From IMG/VR virus record IMGVR_UViG_2600254997_000007: a stretch of 7,051 bases of DNA, one strand, 5' to 3'. Position numbers and translations under genes: made by a program. Under the pieces are notes generated by a model. It saw nothing but the letters and a program-made list of their open reading frames with translations, did no database searches and had not been told where the DNA came from. This DNA comes from a virus. Its lineage: Duplodnaviria > Heunggongvirae > Uroviricota > Caudoviricetes. Positions 362-4,325 of the stretch are shown here, in pieces (the stretch's first letter is position 1; every line of letters begins with the position of its first letter).

Positions 362-841
362 CCACGCCAGAGAGGTGTCGCTGTGGCGACCGTCATCACT
401 TCCGGTCAGCACATCGTGCGTTTTCCCCTTGTTGTCAGTTACGCGAAGATAATCCCCGGAGAAAGTCGACACACGGCTGTAAGCCACACCCGCCATCGCA
501 TACGCGCTGAACCATTCATTCACGCGCACAGACGGCCCCGCCATCACGCTGAACCAGCGGTTACGCACGGAATCTTCATGCCAGCGGGTATCGCTGTAAC
601 GGGTAAGCTGGCGATTCTTGCCTCCTGCATAGCTGAATGACGTCACCAGCCCCAGCGTGTCCGTAAATTCATAACGGTATTTCACGTTAATCCCGTTAAG
701 ATTATCGCTACCGGGAGCGTTCGTCCGGGCATGAAGATACCCCGCGCTCAGTGTGGACTGATGTTCAGACGCCCATGCAGGCGCACCGGATACGGACAGA
801 CAGATGGCTGCGGACAAAATGGCTGCACAAACTTTACGCAT
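362..841 (-). pseudogene. lom: lom (Lom/Ail/PagC-family outer membrane protein), truncated by the IS insertion. 160 lom codons are retained; the ORF then reads 7 IS-derived codons (LSLDQIS) to a stop at 338-340.
   Basis: ORF 338..841 translates MRKVCAAILSAAICLSVSGAPAWASEHQSTLSAGYLHARTNAPGSDNLNGINVKYRYEFTD...SLAW, closely matching phage lambda Lom (206 aa) from memory, with a signal peptide. Homology stops at residue 160, exactly at the IS terminus. RBS GAGAGG lies upstream of the ATG at 839-841. Confidence 0.85.
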
Positions 842-865
842 AATTACCTCTCGCTTTTCTGCAAT

Positions 866-889
866 AAAAAAGGCACCATTTCTGGTGCC
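866..889 (-). terminator. Rho-independent terminator downstream of J (tJ-like), oriented for minus-strand transcripts.
   Basis: Perfect 7-bp stem GGCACCA (872-878) / TGGTGCC (883-889) with a 4-nt loop. On the minus strand it is followed by TTTTTT (plus-strand A run 866-871). It sits 22-45 nt after the J stop at 911-913. Confidence 0.6.
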
Positions 890-910
890 CTTATATGGGT
901 TATAACAATT

Positions 911-3900
911 TCAACGAATACTGATGCCGGAAGCGGCTTTTTTGGTCACAATCACCGTACAGTCGGTGATATTGCCTGCCCCCTGATTGCCTTTCTGGAA
1001 AATCTTAAACTCCAGAGTGACGCTTCCCCTGCCACTCGGCATATCAATAACCGCACTGTAGCTACCGGGAATGGCCCCTTTAGTTTCTCTGGATGCGATT
1101 AATACACCGTTTTTGCGAACTTCAAAACCATAACCCGTGTAACTTGTACCTCCCGGGTTATTACCACTTCCCGGATAGCTATACGCTATTCCGTTAAAGA
1201 TAATGGGCGGAATAATGATTTGACGGTCAAAGTTATGATCATCGCTGATGGTGACTGTAACCGTCCCGTTTGGTGTTTCCGTGTTACCCCACGTACCAGC
1301 CTGTTTCGGAAATGATTTGGATACAGCTTTAACGAAATCCCCTCTGACTTGGGTCGCCTCCAGCATGCCCCTAATCGTACAGTTTTCATTTACCGTGACA
1401 TTGTTGAGCGTCCCGGCGTTCGCATTCACACTGCCACTGATATCCGCATTTTTAGCAGTCAGCTTTCCGTCCGGTGTCAGGGAAAATGCCGGTGGATTGC
1501 CACCGCTGGTAATGGTGGGGGCCGTCAGGCGTTTCAGGAACACGTCATTCATGAATATCTGGTTGCCCTGCGCCACAAACATCGGCGTTTCATTCCCGTT
1601 TGCCGGGTCAATAAACGCGATACGGTTAGCGGCAACCAGAAACTGGCTCAGCTTGCCTTCCTCCGCGTCCTCCATGCTGAGGCCAATACCCGCGACATAA
1701 TGTTTGCCGTCTTTGGTCTGCTCAATTTTGACGCCCCACATGGCATTCCATTTATCGTTAGCGTCCTTCCACTCTTTCGAAAACTCCTCCAGTTTGCTGG
1801 CGTTATCTTCCGTCAGCTCAAAGTTTTCCAGCAGTTCCTTGCCGAGATGCGTTTTATTGATCAACCCTTTATAAAAATTCAGATAACCTTCCGCATCATC
1901 GCTCGCCCGACCGACGGCCTCCACAAATGCCGATTTACCAACGGTGTTCACGCTGCGGATATAAAAGTAATAATCATAACCCGGCTTAATATTGCTACTG
2001 GCGGCTATCCAGTACAGCGCCGTACCAAGATAACGCGCGCTGGTTTCAACCTGCCTGATATCGATAATCCGCTTTTCCGAGAACCAGAACTCAAACTGCA
2101 CCGTCGGGTCATATACAGCCAGTTTCGGGACCGCTGTTATCTGAAAATACCCTGGTATCAGTTCAATAGTGACAGGCGCTGCCGGTGCCGCAATCCGGAA
2201 CGATACCGATGCCGGATCGCCCTGCTGCCCCCACGCATTTACCGCCCGGACCGTCAGCCTGTAGTTCCCCAGCGCCAGTTGCGTGAAGCGGTATGTGGTT
2301 TCCGTCGTCCGGGCCGTGCTGACCAGCCGCTCACTGCCGTCATCCGCTGTCACGGTCAGACGGAGCAGGAAGCTCACGCCCTTCACCACCTTCGGCGTGT
2401 CCCATCGAGCCAGCACCTGATACTCCCCGCTGTCTGCAGTGACTTCGGCAGTCAGGTGCTGCACCGCTGGCGGCGTGACACCGTTCACCGTGCCACTCTG
2501 TTCGCCGTCAAAGTGCGCCCCGTTATCCACGATGGCCTCTTTCTCCGGCACATGCTGCACGGCGGTGATGGCATACGTGCCGTCGTCGTTCTCACGGATA
2601 CTCACGCAGCGGAACAGTCGCTGGCGCAGCGTCGGCAGCTTCAGCCCCCATACGCTGTATTCAGCAACACCGTCAGGAACACGGCTCACTTTTACCTTCA
2701 CGCCGTCGGTGACGGACTGAACCTCCACGCTGACCGGATTGCCACTTCCGTCAACCAGGCTTATCAGCGTGGTACCGGAGGATGGCAGCGTGATTTCACG
2801 GTCGAGCGTCAGCGTCCGGGTCTGGCTGTTCACCGCCAGCACACGACCACCGGTGCTGATACCGGCATAGTCATCATCGCAGATTTCAATGACATCGCCC
2901 GGTACATGGCGAAGCCCTTCGGCACCCACGCTGAAGTCCACGGTCTGCGTTTCCAGCAGTTCTGTTTTAATCAGCCACAGCCCGGCGCGGTGCGCCTGCC
3001 CCCGGCTGGTACAGCCAAAGGCATCCATCTTCGTGACGTTACGACCGTAACGGAGAATGGCCTGCGTATCTTCAACAAGCTCTGTCGCCGTCTCCCAGCC
3101 GTTATCCGGGTCAGTCCAGTTCACCTCAACGGCATTATGGCGGTCTTTCAGGGCGCTGAAGCTGTAGCGGAACGGCGCGCCATCATCCGGCATCACCACA
3201 TTACTGCGGTTATAGGTCCACACCTTATCCGATGGCCGGTCCTGCACGAACGTCAGCGTCTGCCCGTTCCATACCGGCATACAGCGCATCGCAGAGCAGA
3301 AATCACTGAGCACATCCCACGCCTTGCGCTGTGTGGTCAGGTACGCATTACAGGTGATGCGCGGCTCCGTGCCGCCAAAGCCGTCCGGCACTGACTGGTC
3401 GCAGTACTGGCCGATGACATACAGCGCCCATTTGTCCACATCCGCCGCACCAAGACGTTTCCCCATGCCGTAGCGCGGATGGGTCAGCATATCCCACAGA
3501 CACCAGGCCATGTTGTTGCTGTATGCTGGCTTAAACGTTCCGTCCCAGATACCGCTGTATTGCCGCGTCTGCGGGTTATAGTTCGACGGCACCTGCAGAA
3601 TACGCCCGCGCAGATGATAATTACGGCTCACCTGCTGGCTGCCGAACTGCTCCGAGTCCACCTGCACGCCGACCAGTGCCGTGTTCGGGTAGCACTGTTT
3701 CACATCGATGATTTCGGTGTATGACGACCAGAGCGTTTTGTTCTGCAGCTGGTCTGTGGTGCTGTCCGGCGTCATCCTGCGCATCCGGATATTAAACGGG
3801 CGCGGCGGCAGGTTACCCACCACCACCGAGGCCAGATACTGCGAGGTGGTTTTACCCTTAATGGTGATGTCTTTTTCCGTCACCCAGCCACCGTTACGCT

Positions 3901-4060
3901 GTATCTGAACCAGCAGGCGGACTTCCGACGGATTCCGGTCCCCCTTTGAGGTGGTTTCCACCAGTGCCTGCACACCGAAAGTAAAACGCAGACGATCAAT
4001 GTTTGCCGACGTGATGGTCCGGGTGATCGGCGTGTCGTATTTCACTTCCGTACCCAGCAC
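911..4060 (-). CDS. J: Tail tip / host-specificity protein J (central tail fibre), major C-terminal reading frame, 1049 codons. The frame stays open upstream to a TAG at 4088-4090; the true N-terminus is in ORF 4080..4325 in another frame.
   Basis: Translation ([63 protein letters not shown]...) is collinear with lambda gpJ from memory. Position directly downstream of I and upstream of lom matches the lambda map. The tool's start is a GTG at 4058-4060 and is probably not the biological start. Confidence 0.9.
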
Positions 4061-4079
4061 CGTCTCAGAGCCGGAGGAT

Positions 4080-4325
4080 TCAAATCCCTACCGGCGGAGT
4101 CTGCTCCTGCTCACCGGCCCGGAACACCACCGTGACACCGGAGATGATGGTATTACCCTCACTGTCCAGCACCGGCGTACTGTTCAGCAGCACGCTTTTT
4201 AATCCATCCACCGGACCGTCAATCGGCCCTTCGCTGATGGCATCAATCACACTCAGCAACTGCGTGGATTTGAGGTTGTCCTTCGCTTCGCGCGGGGTAT
4301 GCCCCTTACTGCTGCCTTTACCCAT
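4080..4325 (-). CDS. J: N-terminal 81-codon fragment of J, separated from the rest of J by a frameshift.
   Basis: Translation [54 protein letters not shown]...AGEQEQTPP matches the lambda gpJ N-terminus as I recall it, then hits TGA after ...PPVGI. RBS GGAG/GAGGA lies just upstream of the ATG at 4323-4325. Confidence 0.8.

Follow-up and report, generated by a model that had tools for sequence, protein, structure and literature searches.

In phage lambda, lom and the side-tail-fibre genes downstream of it are dispensable for plaque formation, and a frameshift in stf is present even in laboratory lambda. The lom gene has been described as a 'moron', an accessory gene expressed from the prophage whose outer-membrane product benefits the host (PMC3594210). 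Earlier work on O157 Sakai demonstrated that most of its lambdoid prophages bear frameshifts, deletions or insertion sequences (IS); many of these 'defective' prophages are still induced and packaged, and some are transferred, and the authors credited their release and transfer to complementation by, or recombination with, other prophages (PMC2669165). Here, we describe a 7,051-bp stretch of DNA (the window), which is the entire contig ALNX01000076.1 of the draft assembly GCA_000754045.1 and represents an ordinary lambda-type prophage tail-tip cluster of the diarrhoeal Escherichia coli strain E851/71. The accession ALNX00000000 is tied to this strain (PMC3897749), and this link was all that a literature search on the E851/71 genome and on the insertion sequence ISEc13 in prophages of the enteropathogenic E. 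coli (EPEC) strain E2348/69 yielded. E851/71 is presumably a classical EPEC strain. Our preferred reading, with a probability of about 0.7, is that the window holds the H'-M-L-K-I-J-lom end of a lambda-like (siphovirus) prophage of EPEC E851/71 and carries two recent lesions private to this strain, a single extra base in the tail-tip gene J and a copy of ISEc13 in the neighbouring lom.

According to the map of open reading frames (ORFs), all phage genes of the window are located on the minus strand in the order known from lambda. Pfam matches were obtained across the module (Phage_min_tail, Phage_tail_L, Prok-JAB together with NLPC_P60, Lambda_tail_I and six J domains), so that the collinear H, M, L, K, I and J genes with the characteristic domains of a lambda-like siphovirus tail tip are present. 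To distinguish inherited lesions from errors, identical-protein look-ups were run against a collection of 15 billion proteins, k-mer searches were run against 5426 complete E. coli genomes, and exact patterns were searched in genome, viral and metagenome collections.

The extra base in J (Table 1) occurs in the context CCGG-T-AGGG on the coding strand, and the same site without the additional T reads CCGGAGGG. In alignments the base was absent from the E2348/69 prophage PP2, from a second E2348/69 prophage adjacent to potB and from strain Z1323HEC0475, and seven more intact J genes have a length of 3414 nt, equal to that of the window J after repair. The earlier note's claim of a J frameshift was thus borne out, as a single base missing from every relative that was aligned. 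The frame shifts after codon 78 of 1137 and runs into a TGA stop three codons on, leaving one ORF of 81 aa (4080-4325, ending in ...TPPVGI) and a second of 1049 aa (911-4060) for which GTG is the only available start. Removal of base 4090 restores a J protein of 1137 aa without internal stop, which differs from PP2 J at 11 amino acids and aligns by its residues 1-1136 with residues 1-1131 of lambda gpJ in a solved structure (chain 8iyk_J, one of several such gpJ chains matched). An insertion at this position would terminate the tail-tip and receptor-binding protein J. If the extra base is real, the prophage's own genes should not suffice for building an infectious tail, and it would be 'defective' in that narrow sense.

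We consider the frameshift to be probably real. As its only instance comes from a draft contig, a sequencing or assembly error has to be weighed, in which case the tail module would be intact and the IS in lom, a harmless lesion, the sole defect. The 41-mer across the insertion was found in 0 of the 5426 complete E. coli genomes and the corresponding 25-mer had no match in the genome, viral and metagenome collections, while a wild-type 24-mer used as control occurred on at least 120 viral contigs. Likewise, exact-protein look-ups returned the 81-aa and 1049-aa products from this contig only. Such a pattern is what an artefact in a short contig from a draft assembly would produce. In addition, J is a multi-copy gene in E. 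coli (a median of three places per genome, four in E2348/69), which favours consensus errors, and apart from the extra base J looks fully selected (see below). However, the site lies outside any homopolymer run and is therefore not a classic 454 or Ion Torrent indel, consensus indels are rare in Illumina data, and no other frame-breaking differences were present in the contig. Nor is the window J simply chimeric between the two paralogues in E2348/69, as it differs from both at 33 positions; it is a distinct mosaic allele. Taken together, an artefact appears unlikely, albeit an alternative to be taken seriously.

A real frameshift might still be leaky. With the extra base the message reads ...GGU AGG GAU UUG A..., and the shifted frame GUA GGG AUU UGA places a G-rich, Shine-Dalgarno-like stretch just upstream of an AUU-UGA 'shifty stop', an arrangement that bears a loose resemblance to the +1 site of prfB. 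Slippage by +1 at this new site, even at a low level, would restore a full-length J with the sole change of EGF to VGI, or else the 81-aa and 1049-aa fragments might assemble as a split J. Three J copies suffice per virion, and a phage with such slippage may stay weakly infective. We regard either form of leakiness as highly improbable.

The second lesion concerns lom. Window positions 1-361 are identical (361/361) to copies annotated in RefSeq as 'IS4-like element ISEc13 family transposase', and the element stops exactly where homology to intact J-lom loci begins, at window position 362. Of lom, 160 of 199 codons are kept (362-841) and the final 39 are not in the window; beyond codon 160 the ORF continues for seven ISEc13-derived codons (LSLDQIS) and then stops. 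Intact Lom relatives consist of 199 aa and end in ...GVGYKF, which is replaced here, and a complete Ail/Lom barrel (eight strands, about 199 aa, C-terminal aromatic residue) is accordingly not encoded. The IS insertion in lom that had been proposed earlier was thereby located precisely, with the end of ISEc13 joined to codon 160. Transposition of ISEc13 into codon 160/161 would have cost the barrel its last beta-strands together with its C-terminal signal; without these strands and the terminal ...YKF, Lom should not be made, whereas no effect on virion assembly would be expected. The 50-mer across the ISEc13/lom junction was absent from the 5426 complete E. coli genomes and the exact pattern was absent from the collections searched; the protein look-ups, too, gave no second occurrence of it. 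The exact repaired Lom was not found in the 15-billion-protein collection either, and partial Lom and J proteins belonging to the same 90% clusters turned out to be ordinary contig-end truncations and not shared breakpoints. The two lesions, which are of different types and separated by about 3.7 kb, thus represent independent events, as had been assumed before.

The sequence between J and lom is consistent with the accessory role of the latter. A terminator-like hairpin separates the two genes and is followed by a ribosome-binding site of lom's own, which fits an autonomous moron with its own transcription unit. As lom is a moron and not a virion gene, its disruption is uninformative about selection for particle production. 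Moreover, ISEc13 is a high-copy element in this EPEC lineage (30 chromosomal places and two on a plasmid in E2348/69), and the landing of one member of such a family in an accessory gene tells nothing about virion genes. Therefore, the lesion in the moron should not be counted as decay of virion functions, and only that in J bears on the capacity to make particles.

The lom bases at the ISEc13 junction are CCACGCCA(G), 8-9 bp that would be expected to recur as a duplicate under simple insertion. The ISEc13 copy may instead mark an IS-mediated deletion or rearrangement, by which distal lom would have been lost or moved together with the tail-fibre genes and whatever effector cargo was present. 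The other ISEc13 junction is out of view because the contig stops inside the IS, the approximately 30 copies in the lineage could recombine, and the E2348/69 prophage with the closest J itself has a large internal deletion. However, the break occurs exactly at the ISEc13 terminus, as for any transposition product, and no specific sign of a deletion was observed. We regard such a rearrangement as quite unlikely.

Several points weigh against our reading of two recent, strain-private lesions in a lambda-like prophage. The J frameshift depends on a single consensus base of one draft assembly. The exact repaired J was also looked up among the 15 billion proteins and not found, so that no intact sister allele is available for comparison. 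As the contig ends inside ISEc13, simple insertion and IS-mediated deletion or rearrangement are indistinguishable. Finally, the integrase, repressor, head and lysis genes are all located outside the contig, and the rest of the prophage is accordingly not visible.

The earlier note had taken the two lesions as signs of relaxed selection on virion production, a view that the present data sustain only weakly. Compared to the PP2 gene, J displayed a dN/dS of 0.12 (32.5 synonymous and 12.5 non-synonymous differences), and J has a history of purifying selection. Against nine intact relatives only four private substitutions were identified in 3.4 kb (two synonymous, two non-synonymous), a test of low power with so few changes. 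M, L, K and I are intact, as had been noted before, each being identical to a protein on many other contigs (Table 1). Hence, the signature of relaxed selection, namely a raised dN/dS, private changes and several lesions in structural genes, was not found. Purifying selection on J, few private changes and the identity of I, K, L and M to widespread proteins together indicate that any inactivation would be very recent, and nothing beyond the single base in J argues for decay.

The further suggestion of a defective or cryptic prophage stands in part. Provided that it is real, the frameshift in J would be disabling; the lom lesion is irrelevant to this question, no other decay was observed, and the frameshift is a singleton. 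One frameshift in a draft contig provides weak ground for the label 'cryptic', and the Sakai prophages, which remain mobile with help in spite of their defects, illustrate that lesions of this kind do not equal a cryptic, immobile prophage. A related scenario is that both lesions are real but the prophage is not functionally cryptic, as other lambdoid prophages in the same cell could provide J in trans or recombine with the broken gene and so repair it, which would still allow packaging and transfer. In O157 Sakai, particulate DNA of morphogenesis-defective prophages was released, and transfer was seen for some of them (PMC2669165). E. coli genomes with this J usually hold several copies, and the break of the contig in H suggests that a second copy of that sequence is present in E851/71. 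On the other side, the prophage content of E851/71 is out of view here, and we consider rescue by co-resident prophages possible, though on balance doubtful. For annotation, we suggest that J in ALNX01000076.1 be given a flag for either a pseudogene or a possible error of sequencing, and that lom be recorded as interrupted by an IS.

Table 1. Features of the 7,051-bp window (positions on the contig, position 1 being its first base).
Feature	Position	Strand	Basis
ISEc13, 3' end (IS4 family, IS50/Tn5-like)	1..361	plus	100% identity to annotated copies; Pfam Dimer_Tnp_Tn5
Truncated lom (Ail/Lom outer-membrane beta-barrel)	338..841	minus	Pfam Ail_Lom, profile 1-162 of 199
Terminator-like hairpin and T-run between J stop and lom start	869..892	minus	consensus match only
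J, tail-tip/host-specificity gene, split by one extra base	911..4325	minus	Pfam J domains; lambda gpJ alignment
Inserted base in J (T on coding strand, A on plus)	4090..4090	minus	alignment to relatives
I, tail assembly gene, intact, 213 aa	4386..5027	minus	Pfam Lambda_tail_I; identical to E2348/69 protein, on 31 contigs
K, tail-tip gene, JAB and NlpC/P60 domains, intact, 247 aa	4925..5668	minus	Pfam; identical protein on 132 contigs
L, minor tail gene, intact, 232 aa	5674..6372	minus	Pfam; identical protein on 122 contigs
M, minor tail gene, intact, 109 aa	6382..6711	minus	Pfam; identical protein on at least 1000 contigs
H, tape-measure gene, 3' end, cut by contig end	6711..7051	minus	aligns with end of annotated tape measure gene, strain Z1323HEC0475

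Among the neighbouring tail genes, K was absent from the genes called for this contig in the collection, although its ORF is intact. I and K of the window match PP2 while the closest J is that of the potB-adjacent prophage, in line with the usual mosaicism of lambdoid phages. A mosaic breakpoint was also evident further along the module, where the similarity to PP2 decays within L (5750-6375) and ends at 6375; from there on, M and H' (6375-7051) match strain Z1323HEC0475 almost perfectly. The contig starts inside ISEc13 and ends inside H, and both ends lie in sequence that recurs within E. coli genomes (ISEc13 and the 3' end of H, respectively). Short-read assemblies break at repeats, and the limits of the contig are therefore as expected. 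They also suggest that E851/71 harbors other copies of ISEc13 as well as one or more additional lambdoid tail modules.

Of ISEc13, the window contains the terminal inverted repeat (343-361) and, at 3-350, the final 115 codons of the transposase gene, whose stop codon occupies 348-350. A complete E2348/69 copy (locus L004, 813-2361) has the same final base, ...AGATCTGATCAAGAGACAG, and is followed by unrelated DNA, so that the identity to the named element includes its terminus. The left end of ISEc13 starts with CTGTCTCTTATACAC..., and in the complete copy the left terminus (L004 813-835) reads CTGTCTCTTATACACAAATCC, the right terminus being at L004 2343-2361. We take the right terminus to be the 19-bp inside end of IS50/Tn5, CTGTCTCTTGATCAGATCT, with two GATC Dam sites, and the left terminus is presumably similar to both the outside end of Tn5 and the engineered 'mosaic' end. 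The E2348/69 copy that was inspected has an 8-bp direct repeat, CCGAGCGG, on either side and lies within the mog terminator hairpin. At the extreme end of ISEc13 in the window, a perfect 13-bp inverted repeat (329-341 / 347-359) overlaps with the stop codon of the transposase. This repeat is in effect a near-copy of the ISEc13 end that faces inwards and, as RNA, has a folding energy of -21.6 kcal/mol (z = -4.9 compared to shuffled sequences).

Compared to IS50/Tn5, ISEc13 shares a transposase C-terminus matching the Tn5 dimerisation domain in Pfam, but its transposase has diverged from that of Tn5, with a Pfam match of only 27.8 bits, and the repeat at the one inspected copy measures 8 bp as opposed to the presumed 9 bp of Tn5. 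With lambda, the window shares the gene order H-M-L-K-I-J-lom, the Pfam domains of every gene and a J that, once repaired, matches gpJ over its full length. The isolated lambdoid phages mEp460 and cdtI are 94-96% identical to the window at the DNA level over 362-7051. Unlike lambda, mEp460 and cdtI, the window carries a 1-bp insertion that breaks J and an ISEc13 copy that breaks lom. PP2 of E2348/69, which carries cif and nleH, displays 98.2% identity over 362-6375, the potB-adjacent prophage of the same strain has the closest J (99.0% identical), and the E2348/69 I protein and ISEc13 sequence are the same as those of the window. However, J and lom are intact in both E2348/69 prophages. The potB-adjacent prophage is defective in another way, namely by a large head-to-tail deletion. 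This prophage has lost all that lay from the head protease to K, and with it the majority of its head and tail genes, a truncated S49 head protease pseudogene being joined to a truncated K (NlpC/P60) pseudogene (L005 12475-13468), and a partial integrase-core (IS-like) pseudogene is present among its tail-fibre genes. The pool of defective prophages in O157 Sakai (Asadulghani et al., 2009; PMC2669165) resembles the window in that frameshifts and IS insertions occur in otherwise conserved lambdoid modules; it differs in that whole prophages were analyzed and tested by experiment there, as opposed to 7 kb known from sequence alone here. Damage of lambdoid prophages in pathogenic E. coli by IS and frameshifts is already well documented, and the window is an ordinary finding that adds one further case for attaching-effacing E. 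coli.

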